In this document: in pieces, positions 9,631 through 62,831 of the stretch
Numbering within the stretch: position 1 is the stretch's first letter
Layout: the number at the start of each line of letters is the position of its first letter
NCBI GenBank assembly: GCA_031262525.1
Contig: JAISHM010000019.1
Coordinates: 6,489-70,488 of the forward strand
From: Rickettsiales bacterium
Lineage (GTDB): Bacteria; Pseudomonadota; Alphaproteobacteria; Rs-D84
Direction: 5' to 3'
DNA: 64,000 bases
The notes under the pieces: model-generated
Told to the model about the DNA's origin: nothing
The model's database searches: none
The model's input: the letters and a program-made list of their open reading frames with translations, nothing else
Translations under genes and position numbers: made by a program

Positions 9631-11064
9631 ATGGCAAAGACAGGTATCACCCCAACGCGGGCAGAAAATTACAGCGAATGGTATCAAAATGTCGTGGTGG
9701 CGGCGGATATGGCGGAAAATTCGCCAGTGCGGGGATGTATGACAATTAAACCATACGGCTGGGCGATATGGGAACTGATGCGCGCCGAGATGGATAAACA
9801 AATAAAGGCGGCGGGCGTATTAAACGCGAATTTTCCATTGCTGATACCGATTGAATATTTTAATAAAGAAGCCCAGCATGTTGCAGGCTTTGCCAAGGAA
9901 TGCGCGGTTGTAACACATCATCGGTTAAAAATGATTGATGGTAATTTACAACCAGACCCAGATGCGAAATTATCCGAACCATATATTATTCGTCCGACCA
10001 GTGAAACGATTATTGGCGAGGCTATGTCCCGCTGGGTGCAATCTTATCGTGATTTGCCGTTAAAGTTGAATCAGTGGGTAAATGTTATGCGTTGGGAAAT
10101 GCGCCCGCGTATATTCTTGCGGACATCGGAATTCAATTGGCAAGAGGGGCACAATGTTTTCGCAACTGCGGCGGACGCTATGGCGGACGCGCGAAAAATG
10201 CATAAAATGTATTGTGACTATGCCGAAAATTTTCTGGCGATACCTTGTATTCGTGGTGAAAAGACGCCCCAGGAAAGATTTGCTGGCGCGGACCATACAT
10301 TTACAATGGAATGGATTATGCAGGACGGGCGCGCATTACAGGGCGGAACTTCGCACGATTTGGGACAACATTTTGCACATTCTGCGAATATAAAGTATCT
10401 GGGTGCAGACGGGCAACAACATTTTGCATATACTACATCGTGGGGAACATCAACGCGTATGATTGGTGGTTTAATTATGACGCATAGTGATGATGATGGA
10501 CTGGTTCTTCCACCCAGTGTTGCCCCTTATCAGGTTGTGGTTATCCCGATTTTACCAGAACAAAATGAATACGCACACGCGCTGGCAGATAAATTGCGCG
10601 CGGCGGATATCCGTGTTTTTGTTGATGATACGGATGCGCGTTCATCTGATAAAATGTGGAAATGGATTAAACGGGGCGCCCCATTGCGTATTGAAATTGG
10701 TGGGGCAGAGGTTGCAGACAACACTGCAACAATTACGCGGCGTGATTTGGGAAAATCCAGCAAACAAACTTTGCCAACCACGGGAATTGAATCAGAAATT
10801 AAAAATATATTGAACGCGATGCAAACGGATTTGTTAAATGCGGCGCGTGCGCGTAATGAAAAAATGATTTTTGATGTTAAAACAATAGCGGATTTAGAAA
10901 GCGGGTTGTCGGACGAAAAAATTGGATTTTTCAGATTGCCATACGCGGAAACAATCGGCGAAAATGAAAAACATTTTGACGCGTTGATTGAAAAATATAA
11001 AATATCGCATCGGTGTCTGGACGACAACGACCCGTCATTTGTATTTGTTGCAAAATCGTATTAG
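9631..11064 (+). CDS. proS: prolyl-tRNA synthetase, archaeal/eukaryote-like subtype (no INS domain, C-terminal extension ending in Tyr)
   Basis: 'TRAENYSEWYQNVVVAADMAENSPVRGCMTIKPYGWAIWE'. Length 477 aa and terminal '...VFVAKSY'. Confidence 0.88.
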   Translation: MAKTGITPTRAENYSEWYQNVVVAADMAENSPVRGCMTIKPYGWAIWELMRAEMDKQIKAAGVLNANFPLLIPIEYFNKEAQHVAGFAKECAVVTHHRLKMIDGNLQPDPDAKLSEPYIIRPTSETIIGEAMSRWVQSYRDLPLKLNQWVNVMRWEMRPRIFLRTSEFNWQEGHNVFATAADAMADARKMHKMYCDYAENFLAIPCIRGEKTPQERFAGADHTFTMEWIMQDGRALQGGTSHDLGQHFAHSANIKYLGADGQQHFAYTTSWGTSTRMIGGLIMTHSDDDGLVLPPSVAPYQVVVIPILPEQNEYAHALADKLRAADIRVFVDDTDARSSDKMWKWIKRGAPLRIEIGGAEVADNTATITRRDLGKSSKQTLPTTGIESEIKNILNAMQTDLLNAARARNEKMIFDVKTIADLESGLSDEKIGFFRLPYAETIGENEKHFDALIEKYKISHRCLDDNDPSFVFVAKSY

Positions 11065-11076
11065 GGGGCGGGGGAA

Positions 11077-11220
11077 ATGTCAAAGCGTAAAGATTGCGAT
11101 TGTTGCACTAATCCTTTTCACAAAGTGAAGTGGTTATTGTATGATTTTGTGATGTGTTTTTTTACCTGTATCCTGGTGCATTGGTTGATGCATTGGCTGG
11201 GATTTTGGAGCGGACATTAA
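11077..11220 (+). CDS. 47-aa Cys/Trp-rich membrane peptide (hypothetical)
   Basis: Hand translation gives MSKRKDCDCCTNPFHKVKWLLYDFVMCFFTCILVHWLMHWLGFWSGH*. Sits between the proS stop and a strong terminator. Not in the ORF track. Confidence 0.3.
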   Translation: MSKRKDCDCCTNPFHKVKWLLYDFVMCFFTCILVHWLMHWLGFWSGH

Positions 11221-11246
11221 AACGCGGAACACTTCCGCGTTTTTTA
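11219..11246 (+). terminator. rho-independent terminator
   Basis: AACGCGGAA-cac-TTCCGCGTT followed by TTTTT. Confidence 0.75.
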
Positions 11247-17515: not shown

Positions 17516-17543
17516 GTAAAAAACGCGGGGATTCCCGCGCTTT
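17516..17543 (-). terminator. rho-independent terminator after tig
   Basis: CGCGGG-gatt-CCCGCG flanked by an A-run and a T-run (bidirectional design). Confidence 0.7.
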
Positions 17544-25287: not shown

Positions 25288-27666
25288 ATGATTTATATGG
25301 AAATGAGAAGATATTTCATCTTTACAGCGATTTTTATTGCGCTGGGCGTAATGCCCTTGTGCGCGGCGACGCGTGATGCGCGCGTGGTTCGGACATCTGG
25401 GACAACTGCGCGGACGGCGGTAAGCGCACCGCGAACGACGCGCCCGGCAACCACAAATACGGCGCGTTCGGCGCGTGCGGCGACATCTGTATCACGGGCG
25501 ACGACGACTGCGCGTGGTGCGACGATTTCGCGTGCTGCGACGGATAGCGCGGCGCAAACACGAACTGGCGCGGCGTATGAAACTTGCAAGGCTTCGTATT
25601 TTGCCTGTATGGACCAATTTTGCGCGGTAAAAAATGCAAATTATAAACGTTGTTCTTGCTCTGATAAAATTTTTGATATAACCCAGACGCAAAGCATTAT
25701 CCAAGATGCTGGTACAGAATTGACCGAATTCACAGAAAACCTGGGAAATGTTGGTTTGACTGCATCCCAGGCGACGGTTATGAAGCAAGCGACCGAGGGG
25801 GAAAAAGCATTGACAGATGACGGGTCGGCGTCTGCGGCAATTTTACAGGCAATAATGAATTCTATAAAGGGCGAAAACGCAAATGTCGGCGGAATTTACG
25901 AGGGTATGAATAGTATAAATATTCAACTGGATGATTCTGCGGGATTGGGTGGTGGTGAAAGCGCGAATACAATTGCAAATTATAATGGTAAAAATATTTA
26001 TACCGCGGTTTATGGAACATGTCGCGATGTCGTGCGTGCGGATTGCACAGATGCGTCTTTGCAACGGGCGATTACGGCGTATTTAATGGCGATTGAACAA
26101 GATTGTAATTCGGTGCAAACGCAATTGGAAGCAACGAAAAAGAAAATGGTCTCTGGCGTGCGCGAGGCCGATGCAATGTTAAAATTGGCGCGCGTTGAAA
26201 ATCGTAAAACTGAAAATTCCCTGGATATTACGGCGTGTTTGGACGATGTAGAGCGGGCCGTTTTATCCGAAGAAGTTTGTGGTGCAAATTATCACAAATG
26301 TTTGGATAATGGAAAATATATAGATGTCGCAACGGGTAAGCCACTGACCGGTGTCGTAGAGTTTTATAAATTACAAGAATTGTTAAATTTTGCTACGGAT
26401 AAAAGTATTGACGACCAGCGTCTGGCGAAAAATCCAAAAAATCGCGCTTTTGTAAATGCTTTCGAGGGTAAGGTTCGTTCATTTGCGCAACCTGTGTTGG
26501 ATAAGTGTCGGGAAATAGCGGACGATGTTTGGGCGGATTATTTGGACAAAGCGATGTTGGAAATTTATTACGCGCAGCGGGGTAAGGTTGATGAAATTAA
26601 AACAGGGTGTATGGATTTTGTATCGGCGTGTTATACAAATGGAGAGAGGTCTATTACTGCGGCAATGTCGGGAATAATAAATGGCGCGACTGGATTGGCA
26701 CCAGATACAATAAATTTATTGGACGATACTTGTAAAAATTATGTTGCAGCGTGTGATAAAATGTTTGATGGAAATATAATTGCGCAATACATTGACACGC
26801 GCAAAGAAACAGATTTAACAGATTCTTGTCGTGCGATTGTCCAGCAGTGTTTTGATAACTTTGGTGGTGTTGCATATAATAATTTTTATAATCCAGTCAA
26901 TGGGCTATTTTCAACAGGGCGGGCGCTGGATTGGTTTTCTTATGAGCAATTTTGTGTCCAGGGCGACCCGAATTGCACCATTGGTATAAAATCGCCGTGC
27001 GCCCAGAAATTGAGTGAGGTTGCGGCCTGTAATCCATCAAATGACCCAGAATTTGCAAAAAATATATTTGGCGGATTTGATACTGATGGGACGAATTATG
27101 GACTGGTTGAAAATGGCGTTTTGGATACAATGAAAATGCGGGCTAATGGCGTCGCGACCGAGGTTTATAATCAAATTGTAAAAAACTTGACATCTGATTG
27201 TGCAAATTATGGTGCGGAATTTGTGCAATACAGATATGTAATGTATCAAAATGCGAGTTATTATTATCAGTATGCTGATACCGCGGGTAATGGATTATGT
27301 ACTGCGACATTTTCTTCGGGGAATAACATCAGGGCGGATTATTTAATTGGTGGTGGCAGTTGGGTTGAAAATATGTGTCCGCAAAATTATTGGAATCGGG
27401 TTGATACTACATCATGGGGTGTTTGCTCGTGTTGGGAAAATGGTGGTCGGCGCAGTGATGGTGGAATATCATTAAAATGTATCCCAGGGACATACAATAA
27501 CTCTGGTAATGTCCGCGGGATATTTACAGGAATAAACGCAGCGTATCCAAAAAACACGGGTAAAATTTGCCCAAAAACTTACAACGCCCAAACCAATCAA
27601 TGTTTTAATGGTGGTAATGTTCCTTATGACCAAGACAACTTAAATTTAATACCAGATGCAATGTAA
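25288..27666 (+). CDS. 792-aa secreted Cys-rich protein with Arg/Thr/Ala-rich N-terminal low-complexity region
   Basis: Signal peptide '...ALGVMPLCA'. An R/T/A tract of about 65 aa is encoded by locally GC-rich DNA. More than 30 Cys follow in paired spacing. Confidence 0.7.
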   Translation: MIYMEMRRYFIFTAIFIALGVMPLCAATRDARVVRTSGTTARTAVSAPRTTRPATTNTARSARAATSVSRATTTARGATISRAATDSAAQTRTGAAYETCKASYFACMDQFCAVKNANYKRCSCSDKIFDITQTQSIIQDAGTELTEFTENLGNVGLTASQATVMKQATEGEKALTDDGSASAAILQAIMNSIKGENANVGGIYEGMNSINIQLDDSAGLGGGESANTIANYNGKNIYTAVYGTCRDVVRADCTDASLQRAITAYLMAIEQDCNSVQTQLEATKKKMVSGVREADAMLKLARVENRKTENSLDITACLDDVERAVLSEEVCGANYHKCLDNGKYIDVATGKPLTGVVEFYKLQELLNFATDKSIDDQRLAKNPKNRAFVNAFEGKVRSFAQPVLDKCREIADDVWADYLDKAMLEIYYAQRGKVDEIKTGCMDFVSACYTNGERSITAAMSGIINGATGLAPDTINLLDDTCKNYVAACDKMFDGNIIAQYIDTRKETDLTDSCRAIVQQCFDNFGGVAYNNFYNPVNGLFSTGRALDWFSYEQFCVQGDPNCTIGIKSPCAQKLSEVAACNPSNDPEFAKNIFGGFDTDGTNYGLVENGVLDTMKMRANGVATEVYNQIVKNLTSDCANYGAEFVQYRYVMYQNASYYYQYADTAGNGLCTATFSSGNNIRADYLIGGGSWVENMCPQNYWNRVDTTSWGVCSCWENGGRRSDGGISLKCIPGTYNNSGNVRGIFTGINAAYPKNTGKICPKTYNAQTNQCFNGGNVPYDQDNLNLIPDAM

Positions 27667-28726
27667 TCTTTATATTCATATTCCTTATTGTGTAAAAAAA
27701 TGTAATTATTGTGCGTTTTATTCGCGATGCGATGCGCCAGATTGGATGCGATATACATCGGAAATTTTGGCGCAAATTTCATATTGGCGCGAAAAATTAG
27801 GACGCGTAAAAATTTCAACTATATTTTTTGGTGGTGGCACGCCCAGTTTAATGCCGACAAAAAACTTTGCGCAAATTATGAACGCGGTGCGTGAAAATTT
27901 TGATATGGCAGCGGATGCTGAAATTACACTGGAAGCAAATCCAAAAACACTGGACACGACGCGTTTGCGTGAATTTATATCGGGTGGGGTCAATCGTATT
28001 TCAATTGGTGTTCAGTCATTAAATGATAATGAATTACAATTCCTGGGACGAATCCACGGCGCGCGCGACGCGCTGGATTTAATAAACGCGGCGCTGGGCG
28101 AGGGGTTGCGTGTGTCGGCGGATTTTATTTACGGGTTGCCAGGGCAGGGCGCAGATGATATTCATAAAATGTGTGGTGATATAAATGCGTTGGGTTTAGA
28201 ACACGCGTCTTTGTATGAATTGACGATTGAACCGAATACTCTGTTGGCGCGACAAAATCCAAAAATGCCAGATAATGAAACAATGGCAACGATGTATGAA
28301 ATTATTGGGACAGAGTTATCATTGCCGCGGTATGAGGTTTCTAATTACGGAACGCCGTGCGTGCATAATCAAAATGTTTGGGACGGCGCGCCTTATATTG
28401 GATTGGGGGACGGCGCGGCGGGTCGTGTTTTTATGAGTGATGATTGGTATGAAACACGGGTAAAAGATGGAAAAATTATATCACAAAAATTATCAACGCG
28501 GGAACGTGCAATTGAAAAAGTTTTAACGGGATTGCGCACAACGCGTGGGGTTTTATTGACCGATGATGTGATTGATGTTATAAAATATTCCGATATAAAA
28601 ATCTCCGCCCTTGGGGGCGGGGTGGATTTTTGCATTAGCAAAAATACGGGGCGGGGGAATACACAACGTTTATTTGTAAACAACTTCTTGCTTTTGGATT
28701 CTATATTGGTAAAGTTGATAAAATGA
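27656..28726 (+). CDS. hemW: radical-SAM heme chaperone HemW (HemN-like, oxygen-independent coproporphyrinogen oxidase family)
   Basis: 'LYIHIPYCVKKCNYCAF' (CxxxCxxC), 'FFGGGTPS' and a C-terminal '...LLLDSILVKLI'. Confidence 0.85.
   Translation: MQCNLYIHIPYCVKKCNYCAFYSRCDAPDWMRYTSEILAQISYWREKLGRVKISTIFFGGGTPSLMPTKNFAQIMNAVRENFDMAADAEITLEANPKTLDTTRLREFISGGVNRISIGVQSLNDNELQFLGRIHGARDALDLINAALGEGLRVSADFIYGLPGQGADDIHKMCGDINALGLEHASLYELTIEPNTLLARQNPKMPDNETMATMYEIIGTELSLPRYEVSNYGTPCVHNQNVWDGAPYIGLGDGAAGRVFMSDDWYETRVKDGKIISQKLSTRERAIEKVLTGLRTTRGVLLTDDVIDVIKYSDIKISALGGGVDFCISKNTGRGNTQRLFVNNFLLLDSILVKLIK
28594..28664 (+). repeat. G-rich double-hairpin repeat element, copy A (inside the hemW coding sequence)
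   Basis: TATAAAAATCTCCGCCCTTGGGGGCGGGGTGGATTTTTGCATTAGCAAAAATACGGGGCGGGGGAATACAC. Homologous to 62651-62714. Confidence 0.7.
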
Positions 28727-35368: not shown

Positions 35369-35444
35369 TGGTGGAGTTGATGGGACTCAAACCCACGACC
35401 TCTACGATGCGAACGTAGCGCTCTATCAACTGAGCTACAACCCC
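35369..35444 (-). tRNA. tRNA-Ala (anticodon CGC), CCA-encoded
   Basis: Reverse complement reads GGGGTTGTAGCTCAGTTGATAGAGCGCTACGTTCGCATCGTAGAGGTCGTGGGTTTGAGTCCCATCAACTCCACCA. G3:U70 identity pair, anticodon loop TTCGCAT, GGTTTGAGTCC in the T arm (canonical GTTCGA replaced). Confidence 0.93.
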
Positions 35445-46838: not shown

Positions 46839-47585
46839 ATGCCAAAAGTCTCTGTGATTATTCCTGTTTATAATGCGGAAAAATTTCTACGAAAGTGTTT
46901 AGAATCTGTGTTAAATCAGACTTTTTCAGATATAGAAATTATATGTGTAAATGATGGCAGCACGGATAAATCATTGGAAATTTTGCAATCTTATAAAGAT
47001 AAAAGAATAAAAATTTTGGATAAAAAAAATGCGGGTGTGTCGGCGGCACGGAATGATGGATTGTCGGCGGCAACGGGAGAATATATACATTTTATAGATG
47101 CAGACGATTGGATTGACGATGATTATTATGAAACATTATTAGCGGGCGCAAGAGCGGATATTATTGCCAGTGGTTTTGTATCAAATACAAAATTTACAAA
47201 CGGAATAAAATATACCAGAAATCATATTGTAAAAACTTTGTCATGGAAATTGTGGGTGTCGGGCGCGATGTCTAAATCGTATGTGTGGCGGTATTTGTTT
47301 CGTCGTAAATTTCTGATTAAAAATAAATTAAAATTTCGCACTGATTTAATTTCCCAAGAAGATACATTATTTGTTCTGAATGCAATGGCGTTATCTGATA
47401 AACTGGTTATTCGTCGTGGTGCAAAATATCATTATATAATGAATACGAATTCTGCGCTGAATGCACGCGACCCAGAACATCAAAAAAAGATGGATAAGCA
47501 TTATCAAATCGGCAGAAAGTTCCGCAAAGATTTCGCAAAAAAACACAATGTTTTGTGGGTGTGGGTTTTACGAAAATTTTCGTAA
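46839..47585 (+). CDS. glycosyltransferase family 2
   Basis: 'VSVIIPVYNAEKFLRKCLESVLNQT', 'NDGSTDKS' and 'DADD'. Ends '...LRKFS*'. Confidence 0.8.
   Translation: MPKVSVIIPVYNAEKFLRKCLESVLNQTFSDIEIICVNDGSTDKSLEILQSYKDKRIKILDKKNAGVSAARNDGLSAATGEYIHFIDADDWIDDDYYETLLAGARADIIASGFVSNTKFTNGIKYTRNHIVKTLSWKLWVSGAMSKSYVWRYLFRRKFLIKNKLKFRTDLISQEDTLFVLNAMALSDKLVIRRGAKYHYIMNTNSALNARDPEHQKKMDKHYQIGRKFRKDFAKKHNVLWVWVLRKFS
47568..47585. repeat. 18-bp perfect palindrome TTACGAAAATTTTCGTAA shared by two convergent GT2 genes
   Basis: The sequence is its own reverse complement and encodes LRKFS* in both directions. Confidence 0.95.
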
Positions 47586-48317
47586 ATACCAATCCAATAT
47601 AAATCCGTGTTTCCACGCCCAATTGCGGCGATAGCGACGCGATAATTTCATATTTTTATTTCTGGTCTTTCGCCGTGTTTTGTCGTGCATAATAGAAGAC
47701 TCATTCAGCGCGTAATGATATAAAACATTTGGAACAACCGCTATTTTATTCGCCAAACGAACTAGTTCTAGTGAAAAAAATGCATCCTCCATCGCGCGAA
47801 GCCCTGTTGGAAAAAATAATTTATTTTGTGTTAAAAAATCGCGCCTTGATAAATACCGCCATACATAATTATTCGCAATAACGCGTGTTCCGCGCACACG
47901 CTCGCGCAGAGTTTTTAATGTCATTAGTTTGCTGTAATTTATGCTGTGGTTGTATGAATTTTCGTTATCAAACCCGCTGACCGCTACATCGGCATTTGCC
48001 TTGGTCGCTGATGATAACATTTTTTCATAATAATCATTGTCAATCCAATCATCAGAATCCAAGTAATGAACCCAATCCCCCGTTGCCGCGGCAAATCCGT
48101 TATTTCGCGCATCTGACAATCCCATATTTTTTTGTCGTATGATTTTTATTCGTTTATCTTTTTTTGCATATTTTTTTAATATGTCTATGGATTTGTCGGG
48201 ACTGCCGTCATCAACACAAATAATTTCCAGGTCCCGGTATGTTTGACCCACAACCGAATCCAGGCAACGCACCAAGTATGGTTCGGATTTATAAACAGGT
48301 ATTATAACAGATATCAT
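47568..48317 (-). CDS. glycosyltransferase family 2 (paralog of 46839-47585, inverted)
   Basis: 'ISVIIPVYKSEPYLVRCLDSVVGQT', 'DDGSPDKS' and 'DSDD'. Ends '...LRKFS*'. Confidence 0.8.
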   Translation of the reverse strand: MISVIIPVYKSEPYLVRCLDSVVGQTYRDLEIICVDDGSPDKSIDILKKYAKKDKRIKIIRQKNMGLSDARNNGFAAATGDWVHYLDSDDWIDNDYYEKMLSSATKANADVAVSGFDNENSYNHSINYSKLMTLKTLRERVRGTRVIANNYVWRYLSRRDFLTQNKLFFPTGLRAMEDAFFSLELVRLANKIAVVPNVLYHYALNESSIMHDKTRRKTRNKNMKLSRRYRRNWAWKHGFILDWYLRKFS

Positions 48318-62442: not shown

Positions 62443-62542
62443 ATTTCTGTGTGCATCTGCTCGCTTTTGCCGACCCTCGTGTATTTTTATACACGTCGGG
62501 TCGTCGAAACCATCGCATCTGCCACACATAAATTTATTTTTT
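62441..62542 (+). terminator. long imperfect hairpin plus T-run immediately after the rnj stop
   Basis: The arms AAATTTCTGTGTG...GACCCTCGTGTAT and ATACACGTCGGGTC...CACACATAAATTT surround a TTTT loop, followed by ATTTTTT. Confidence 0.5.
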
Positions 62543-62597
62543 AAGAGTGTCTGTGAATGCCTGCTTGCGGTTTACTTTGCTCGTGTATTTTTATACA

Positions 62598-62669
62598 CTC
62601 GGTCTAAAATCCCCGTTTGAACTCGGTATAAAATCCCCGCTTGAACTCGGTATAAAATCCCCGCCCTTT
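62598..62669 (+). repeat. 24-bp tandem repeat, about 2.7 copies (CTCGGT[C/A]TAAAATCCCCG[T/C]TTGAA)
   Basis: Units at 62598-62621 and 62622-62645. A third unit from 62646 runs into the double-hairpin element. Confidence 0.9.
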
Positions 62670-62714
62670 GGGGGCGGGGTGTCCGCGCAGCGGACGGGGC
62701 GGGGGAACCACCAC
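62651..62714 (+). repeat. G-rich double-hairpin repeat element, copy B (intergenic)
   Basis: TATAAAATCCCCGCCCTTTGGGGGCGGGGTGTCCGCGCAGCGGACGGGGCGGGGGAACCACCAC. Homologous to 28594-28664. Confidence 0.7.
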
Positions 62715-62751
62715 AGAAAAAAACTTTATCATATAAACAACCTCCGTCATA

Positions 62752-62777
62752 CCGCCGAATGGCGGGGAATTTTTTTT
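62752..62777 (+). terminator. rho-independent terminator
   Basis: CCGCC-gaat-GGCGG followed by GGAA and T8. Confidence 0.6.
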
Positions 62778-62802
62778 ATAATTCAACTGGGGGGATAAAC
62801 AA

Positions 62803-62831
62803 TTGACATTGCGGACCATAACCTTTACGAT
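62803..62831 (+). promoter_or_regulatory. sigma70-like promoter (TTGACA-17 nt-TACGAT) for the downstream outer-membrane-protein gene
   Basis: -35 at 62803-62808 and -10 at 62826-62831. A leader of about 110 nt has an AAGGAAG Shine-Dalgarno before ATG 62947. Confidence 0.45.

Follow-up and report, generated by a model that had tools for sequence, protein, structure and literature searches.

Palindromic elements that reside in frame in the genes of Rickettsia (Rickettsia palindromic elements, RPEs) were reportedly described by Ogata et al. in 2000. The GC clusters and double-hairpin elements of mitochondrial DNA (mtDNA) in yeast and Allomyces are GC-rich palindromic mobile mini-elements in AT-rich genomes. 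In Escherichia coli, there are G-rich HPG motifs, which we take to be the same as the BoxC repeats. For HPG1 and HPG2, a switch between G-quadruplex, hairpin, and duplex has been described (Kaplan et al. 2016, PMC5100583), and BoxC is listed as a family of 50-56 bp (PMC2267715). Repetitive extragenic palindromes (REPs) carrying GTAG or CGTC tags also occur within genes, including replication and repair genes and those for DNA ligase and tRNA synthetases, Sphingomonads included (Di Nocera et al. 2013, PMC3733652, where RPEs are discussed as well), and REPs form the composite units known as REPINs (Bertels and Rainey 2011, PMC3116915). Here we analyze a G-rich hairpin-forming repeat found in two copies in a 64,000-nucleotide (nt) stretch of DNA from a Rickettsiales bacterium (assembly GCA_031262525.1, contig JAISHM010000019.1, positions 6,489 to 70,488; hereafter the window, to which all coordinates refer), one copy inside the heme chaperone gene hemW and the other 3' of the RNase J gene rnj.

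Two window copies and the family to which they belong

Copy A (28603-28657) lies within hemW and copy B (62659-62705) 3' of rnj. Common to both are a hairpin of 8-9 bp formed by a C-rich and a G-rich arm (C arm, G arm; hairpin 1), a second hairpin (hairpin 2), and a 3' block GGGGCGGGGG (G2), with four G tracts per element (Table 1). The first-pass annotation of the window had described two copies of one architecture, and the sequences are present where it placed them. A repeat search and a covariance model, both applied to the whole 64 kb, detected these two copies only. The exact string GGGGCGGGG occurs five times in the window, always on the plus strand, against 0.56 occurrences expected, and a count of five was reached in 0 of 100 shuffles.

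Copies A and B belong to a widespread repeat family, with the same architecture found elsewhere. Metagenome and genome collections were scanned with the pattern CCGCCC-N-GGGGCGGGG-N-GGGGCGGGGG. Most of the matches are poly-G junk or chance occurrences in high-GC DNA, as is the case for the bulk of the at least 120 loci from the metagenome scan (the source contig is not among the matches listed), and a clean subset shows the whole architecture, including the hairpin between the two G blocks. Several members of this subset contain CCGCGCAGCGG, the core of hairpin 2 in copy B. By taxon, the architecture was found in Sphingomicrobium and Sphingomonas (loci L127, L139, L146, L150, L152, L161, and L166), in Salinarimonas (L128), Acidimicrobiaceae (L135), and Prevotellaceae (L134), all of them named by record titles, and in low-GC intergenic metagenome loci (L076 and L115). 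Copy B and the Sphingomonad units have about 45 of 57 core positions in common, including the 11-nt core of hairpin 2.

Both hairpins are supported by covariation, the check that the first-pass annotation had proposed. Across 30 aligned units, 98.8% of the cells are paired overall and 99.6% in hairpin 1; compensatory changes are present in all five pairs of hairpin 2, and the centre pair of hairpin 1 switches from G:C to U:A in one subtype. The observed values were reached in 0 of 500 shuffles, and slid controls collapse. In the DNA alignment of the same units, the centre base of G2 follows the centre pair of hairpin 1, being C where that pair is G:C and T where it is T:A. In units of the T/A subtype, the T at the centre of G2 therefore differs from the centre A of the G arm, of which G2 is no copy, and cannot pair with the centre T of the C arm.

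A covariance model, R1, was built from a seed of 13 canonical units that included copy B and excluded copy A. Copy A scores 35.7 bits (E ~1e-7) with this model, and many further units score at E values of 1e-8 to 1e-20; the 59 bits of copy B, a seed member, are not an independent score. At gathering thresholds, Rfam 15 has nothing over either copy, its sole match in the window being a tRNA (35372-35444), and with relaxed E-values, the copy B region and nine related loci yield sub-threshold, chance-level matches only. Literature searches for the motif or a named family returned nothing specific and no paper naming the family.

Family members vary in composition. Units lacking hairpin 2 occur at L088, L058, and L116. 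The Sphingomonad units are usually head-to-head doublets, with doublets present at L166, L150, L082, L087, L084, and L078; the window copies are singlets. A plasmid BLAST search with a Sphingomonad doublet gave one partial match.

In-frame residence and the window loci

In Sphingomonads, units of the family, often as head-to-head doublets, lie in frame within recF, ileS, ligA, and an open reading frame (ORF) of 319 amino acids (aa). Among the copies in recF, ileS, and ligA, both orientations and different frames are represented. In recF (L061, L088, L109, and L166), the element encodes PRPFRGGEE..GAGE, and the protein has about 40 residues more than the RecF of solved structure (8a8j). The isoleucyl-tRNA synthetase encoded by ileS at L150 exceeds the solved IleRS (8wnf) by about 56 residues. 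In ligA (L152), the element is antisense to the gene, and 37 residues are added relative to E. coli LigA (4glx). The 319-aa ORF (L070) is a probable peptidase, judged by eye only.

Among RecF orthologs with 74-89% identity to the L166 protein, one and the same loop is either empty (proteins of 353-354 aa) or occupied by a singlet, a doublet, or another repeat, and the singlets come with or without hairpin 2. Such variation in presence and type among close orthologs is indicative of mobility, for which it is the best evidence. The RecF loop is a natural hot spot for insertions, in which gains or losses have been recent. Across strains, the Sphingomonad RecF loop (alignment columns 107-188) contains at least 3-4 types of palindromic repeats, with PFVSSEVETR..STSLGTNG and PPLPPAGGERGEG as examples.

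The first-pass annotation had proposed, by analogy with RPEs, a family of palindromic elements inserted in frame into genes. This proposal is supported by the architecture in other genomes and metagenomes, by the covariance model that links both window copies, and by the members in recF, ileS, and ligA together with their presence or absence among close RecF orthologs.

The host of copy A is identified as hemW by its TIGR00539 match (234.8 bits against a cut-off of 205.4). At its 3' end, the stop codon overlaps with the start of a gene for an M3 peptidase, an arrangement also seen in relatives, and its start overlaps the end of a 792-aa cysteine-rich ORF (25288-27666) with a Thr/Ala/Arg-rich N-terminal region and no Pfam match. 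Copy A is indeed read in frame, as KISALGGGVDFCISKNTGRGNT. The best non-self HemW matches are 55-62% identical, the named ones being labelled alphaproteobacterial metagenome-assembled genomes, and the orthologs are mostly 342-351 aa long vs 356 aa in the source. Hairpin 1, along with the preceding AAA ATC codons (28597-28602), encodes KISALGGGV, which is absent from the closest orthologs; NTGRGNT, encoded by G2, is likewise absent from HemW orthologs in the alignment. DFCISKN, the product of hairpin 2, is aligned to DF[IV]IK[DN]N, a conserved HemW strand that the orthologs keep. Thus, the expectation of orthologs without the G-rich-encoded residues holds, but the net gain is about 14 residues in two loop blocks, one on either side of the conserved strand, rather than the contiguous 20-25 aa that had been anticipated. 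Because hairpin 2 of copy A encodes a conserved beta-strand, copy A is not a simple contiguous insertion, and its hairpin 2 is probably host sequence.

In the AlphaFold2 model of HemW (mean predicted local distance difference test score, pLDDT, 85), FCIS (325-328) and RLFV (338-341) form a beta-hairpin. The residues encoded by G2, with TGRG from the block itself, make up its enlarged turn, and those encoded by hairpin 1 form the end of a helix and the following loop. In relatives, this part of hemW attracts GC-rich palindromes. The hemW of L001 (P0002) has a hairpin resembling hairpin 1 at the same place as in copy A, left of the conserved strand, and just 3' of the strand, a palindromic in-frame insertion of 130-150 nt (1400-1600) with 15-nt inverted termini, CTTGTTAAAGGGGGG and CCCCCCTTTAACAAG. 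At another site of the same gene (1065-1085), a GGGGCGGGGTCTACCCGCCC hairpin, that is, GGGGCGGGG/CCCGCCC, replaces residues with the length unchanged. The hemW of L002 contains a unit of the same architecture in antisense at a different site.

Copy B is flanked by the stop codon of rnj (62442) on one side and, on the other, by a terminator-like hairpin followed by a T run; given the position of this hairpin, copy B is within the rnj 3' untranslated region. Ahead of copy B, its left end recurs in part, as two additional 24-nt units: of three tandem units, the third enters hairpin 1, which identifies the units as partial duplications of the left end of the element. An independent assembly from Logan SRR14710920 (L167) is identical in all 411 bases of the alignment, which extends from the 3' end of rnj across copy B and its terminator, so copy B is not an assembly artefact; an RNase J query returned only a 9.9-kb identical contig. 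The same reading frame that was noted in the first-pass annotation is open across copy B, within ORF 62547-62798, without any sign of a gene: this ORF is rejected as such, having no Pfam match, being built of repeats, and crossing the terminator. Hairpin 1 is also rejected as a terminator, given that the pattern fits the minus strand only, on which no ORF of 40 aa or more terminates at this place. The rnj 3' region as a whole (62443-62790) is repeat-packed and strongly structured (folding z = -5.8), with two 49-nt repeats (62446-62494 and 62550-62598) that contain the palindrome GTGTATTTTTATACAC; a promoter-like site is found at 62803-62831.

Partial tandem duplications of the left flank precede both copies (28576-28605 and 62597-62668). 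In copy A, the duplicates are GTTATAAAATATTCC and GATATAAAAATCTCC, with an imperfect 15-nt tandem duplicate at 28576-28590. These duplications may be a trace either of element acquisition or of replication slippage.

The 3' block had also been noted to recur after proS. A block is present there; scored as an element with the covariance model, it reaches only 12.4 bits (E 0.18), and it may be either what is left of an element or a G run that has no relation to one. It precedes the ATG (11078) of a small ORF, about 46 aa by eye, that ends before a terminator-like hairpin (11219-11246). At the unrelated locus L115, a full element is found 25 nt 3' of proS; orthology of the two proS sites was rejected because the ProRS types differ (563 aa vs 477 aa).

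Table 1 Features of the repeat and its surroundings in the window
Feature	Sequence	Position	Strand	Remarks
hemW ORF		27656-28726	+	radical SAM heme chaperone, 356 aa, host of copy A; Radical_SAM, TIGR00539
Left flank common to copies A and B	CGATATAAAAAT	28591-28602 (copy A)	+	not significant alone
Copy A, hairpin 1	CTCCGCCC-TTGG-GGGCGGGG	28603-28610, 28615-28622 (arms)	+	8 bp, one T.G pair
Copy A, hairpin 2	ATTTTTGC-ATTA-GCAAAAAT	28626-28645	+	AT-rich, 8 bp
Copy A, G2 block	GGGGCGGGGG	28648-28657	+	
Three 24-nt tandem units	ACTCGGTMTAAAATCCCCGYTTGA	62597-62668	+	third unit continues into copy B hairpin 1
Copy B, hairpin 1	CCCCGCCC-TTTGG-GGGCGGGG	62659-62666, 62672-62679 (arms)	+	
Copy B, hairpin 2	GTCCGC-GCA-GCGGAC	62681-62695	+	holds the commonest family core, CCGCGCAGCGG
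Copy B, G2 block	GGGGCGGGGG	62696-62705	+	
Intrinsic-terminator-like hairpin and T run		62752-62790	+	downstream of copy B
Solitary G block	GGGGGCGGGGG	11064-11074	+	directly 3' of the proS stop codon; fifth GGGGCGGGG at 11065-11073

Elsewhere in the window, AAAAAACGCGG..CCGCGTTTTTT hairpins lie between A and T runs at 17518, 20958, 33849, 35079, 54554, and 11219, and this hairpin family looks like a set of bidirectional intrinsic terminators. Two inverted 147-nt arms (46995-47141 and 48015-48161), 873 nt apart, are 73% complementary.

Selfish repeat, regulatory switch, or assembled module

The explanation that we favor, and consider reasonably probable, is that these are small, non-autonomous, GC-rich palindromic repeats that spread within genomes and persist in 3' intergenic regions and in protein loops. 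One unit consists of a C arm, CCCC[G/T]CCC(C), and a complementary G arm, GGGG[C/A]GGGG, that together form hairpin 1, followed by an optional, sequence-variable second hairpin and an unpaired G block, GGGG[C/T]GGGGG. Such units would spread within a genome and survive where they do little harm, that is, in 3' intergenic regions, such as the rnj 3' untranslated region with copy B, and in loops at the surface of proteins. Within loops, they would persist only if the frame is kept and no stop codon arises, being translated into Gly/Pro/Arg-rich residues, as would be the case for copy A in HemW. G/C-rich sequence is inherently free of stop codons. Mobilization could proceed through single-stranded hairpin DNA, in the manner of REPs and REPINs that are moved by RAYT transposases, or through recombination between copies. 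We infer that the element is selfish DNA without a dedicated host function; its hairpins, or a G-quadruplex formed by the four tracts, may nevertheless have side effects, such as protection of mRNA 3' ends or pausing of the polymerase or the ribosome.

Several observations weigh against this explanation. That distant taxa conserve the G tracts so strongly could also mean function, and part of this conservation is ascertainment, given that the scan patterns demanded the G blocks. The window holds only the two copies reported above. A transposase or other mobilizing gene was not identified, no PF01797 scan of the window or the loci having been made, and inspection revealed no GTAG- or CGTC-type tag flanking the window copies or the aligned units. 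Finally, the conserved strand encoded by hairpin 2 of copy A is not predicted by simple cut-and-paste or copy-and-paste.

Function is the core of an alternative that we regard as unlikely: the element would be a cis-acting switch, in which one or the other G block is paired to the C arm, or the four G tracts form a G-quadruplex with hairpin 2 as its central loop, and through which the host genes would be regulated at the level of translation, mRNA stability, or the termination of transcription. The RNA folds are consistent with such a switch. Both window copies have folding z-scores between -2.7 and -3.6, and the predicted fold of copy B contains both hairpins, with the C arm paired to the G arm, whereas the minimum-energy fold of copy A has the alternative pairing of the C arm with G2. 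In variants lacking hairpin 2, ViennaRNA favors the G-quadruplex (-39.2 vs -32.8 and -68.0 vs -35.8 kcal/mol); in the window copies, by contrast, the central loops of 16 and 25 nt exceed the limit of this program, so that it gives them no four-tier quadruplex. A quadruplex is made plausible by the four G tracts, which are kept even when the centre base changes, and the E. coli repeat of the same architecture is reported to interconvert between hairpin and G-quadruplex in vitro (PMC5100583). Mutually exclusive folds, which the first-pass annotation had suggested, are possible in the window copies, but the alternative hairpin is not conserved in the T/A subtype, and Rfam has no match to the element. 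The low-GC intergenic copies (copy B, L115, and L076) are on the same strand as both flanking ORFs, which favors the switch; across the family, however, units reside in unrelated essential genes, in both orientations and different frames, with gain and loss among close relatives, which fits a parasite better.

The peculiar structure of copy A suggests another alternative, to which we assign a low probability, namely, that G-rich modules are installed around a host hairpin, or selected along with it, such that the element is not a fixed block of DNA. This would imply a novel mechanism of writing or recombination, or else selection for the complete structure. The conserved strand DFCISKN is encoded by hairpin 2 with G-rich pieces on either side; at one recF site, orthologous copies have or lack hairpin 2 (L061 vs L088); in L001 hemW, the same strand has the hairpin resembling hairpin 1 on its left and a palindromic insertion of another kind on its right, and the length-neutral GGGGCGGGG/CCCGCCC hairpin replaces residues. 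There is, however, a single clear case, and a T5...A5 palindrome in the frame of copy A by itself gives F...K, so that the resemblance to the strand may be in part cheap convergence; furthermore, most family members have a canonical hairpin 2 that clearly is not host-derived. In its stronger form, this alternative posits a conserved hairpin/G-quadruplex module, the G-rich halves of which would be added on either side of a hairpin encoded by the host or be completed through selection on such a hairpin, with HemW as the example; we find this form similarly improbable. If true, it would entail an undescribed mechanism of mobilization or templating, along with a multi-phylum factor that recognizes GGGG-N-GGGG tracts.

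Local segmental duplication, with copy B as a decayed remnant of the 3' end of hemW, or vice versa, rather than two independent insertions, appears very unlikely. It draws on the likeness of the right flanks, AAC-TTTAT..TAAACAAC[T/C]TC, which falls within conserved hemW codons (VNNF), and on the shared open frame, in which KLYHINNL of copy B is similar to RLFVNNF. The downstream similarity, already described as weak in the first-pass annotation, turned out to be marginal (local-alignment p ~0.017), and the left-flank likeness is not significant (p 0.12). No further similarity to hemW was found around copy B, which moreover carries the canonical hairpin 2 of unrelated genomes that copy A lacks, and the family is plainly present outside the source genome.

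That the resemblance arose by chance, or by convergence of terminator-like hairpins rich in GC within an AT-rich genome, is disfavored and hardly credible: although hairpin 1 on the minus strand followed by ATTTTATA fits the terminator pattern and many of the scan matches are poly-G junk or high-GC coincidences, the agreement of copy B with the Sphingomonad units, hairpin-2 core included, the model E-values from 1e-7 to 1e-20, and the excess of exact GGGGCGGGG all argue against it.

With spreading, non-autonomous repeats as the favored explanation, in-frame palindromic selfish DNA, best known from Rickettsia, would now be seen for a different, G-rich family, namely, in hemW of an uncultured low-GC alphaproteobacterium, in recF, ileS, and ligA of free-living Sphingomonads, and at intergenic sites in other lineages. 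For annotators, the family would serve as a model by which insertions rich in Gly, Pro, and Arg can be spotted in essential proteins. Two natural insertion hot spots, the loop of RecF and the C-terminal hairpin of HemW, are useful for studies of loop tolerance, and the odd structure of copy A provides a lead on how such elements are acquired. The family would also be tied to the BoxC-type architecture of E. coli, which has been studied as a hairpin/G-quadruplex switch.

Comparison with known palindromic repeats

The mitochondrial GC clusters resemble the family in being GC-rich, mobile, and occasionally located inside coding or rRNA genes; unlike it, they are organellar, and their sequences are unrelated.

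With REPs and REPINs, the family shares short palindromic repeats and a location mostly downstream of genes; the head-to-head dimers of REPINs may have a counterpart in the Sphingomonad doublets, the window copies being singlets. REPs reach tens to hundreds of copies in a genome, and the 64-kb window has two copies of the present element. In contrast to these, the GTAG/CGTC tag is absent here, and the window unit has two hairpins and a G block rather than one hairpin. Identity with the CGTC-1 REPs of Sphingomonads was rejected, as those encode peptides of the VIPAKAGI/VAPAQAGA type (PMC3733652 supplement).

The likeness to RPEs is that of palindromic alphaproteobacterial elements that sit in frame in coding sequences, housekeeping genes among them, add residues to loops, and occur between genes as well. 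As with RPEs, the in-frame residues are absent from orthologs, in HemW for copy A and in RecF, IleRS, and LigA for related elements. RPE-1, however, is 100-150 bp long and AT-richer, whereas the window unit measures about 50-70 nt, is G-rich, and has an unpaired G block. The comparison was one of behavior and not of sequence with RPE-1 to RPE-10, so the elements may be said to work like RPEs rather than to be members of that class.

The E. coli BoxC-type repeat, CCCCTCTCCC-TTT-GGGAGAGGG-TTA-GGGTGAGGGG, for which the median number of places in an E. coli genome is 18, has the same order of C arm, short loop, complementary G arm, short spacer, and second G block, with four G tracts. Pairs of it on opposite strands are reported at distances below 50 bp (PMC5100583), comparable to the Sphingomonad doublets, and its TTA spacer is also found in family variants without hairpin 2 (L058). 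Aligned with R1, it matches end to end with hairpin 2 deleted, at 17.7 bits (search of 834 nt). It differs from the window family in having GGG tracts with 3-nt loops (GGGAGAGGG) instead of GGGG-C-GGGG (GGGGCGGGG) and in lacking the hairpin-2 module, and it is described as intergenic, in-frame coding copies not having been reported. Sequence similarity is low, such that the likeness is one of architecture, from which common descent does not follow.

By this analogy, the closest known element in architecture appears to be the BoxC-type repeat of E. coli, and the closest in behavior, the Rickettsia palindromic elements together with the intragenic REPs. The elements described here thus seem to behave like the known selfish palindromic repeats of Rickettsia and E. 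coli and, on this comparison, would not represent a new kind of system.

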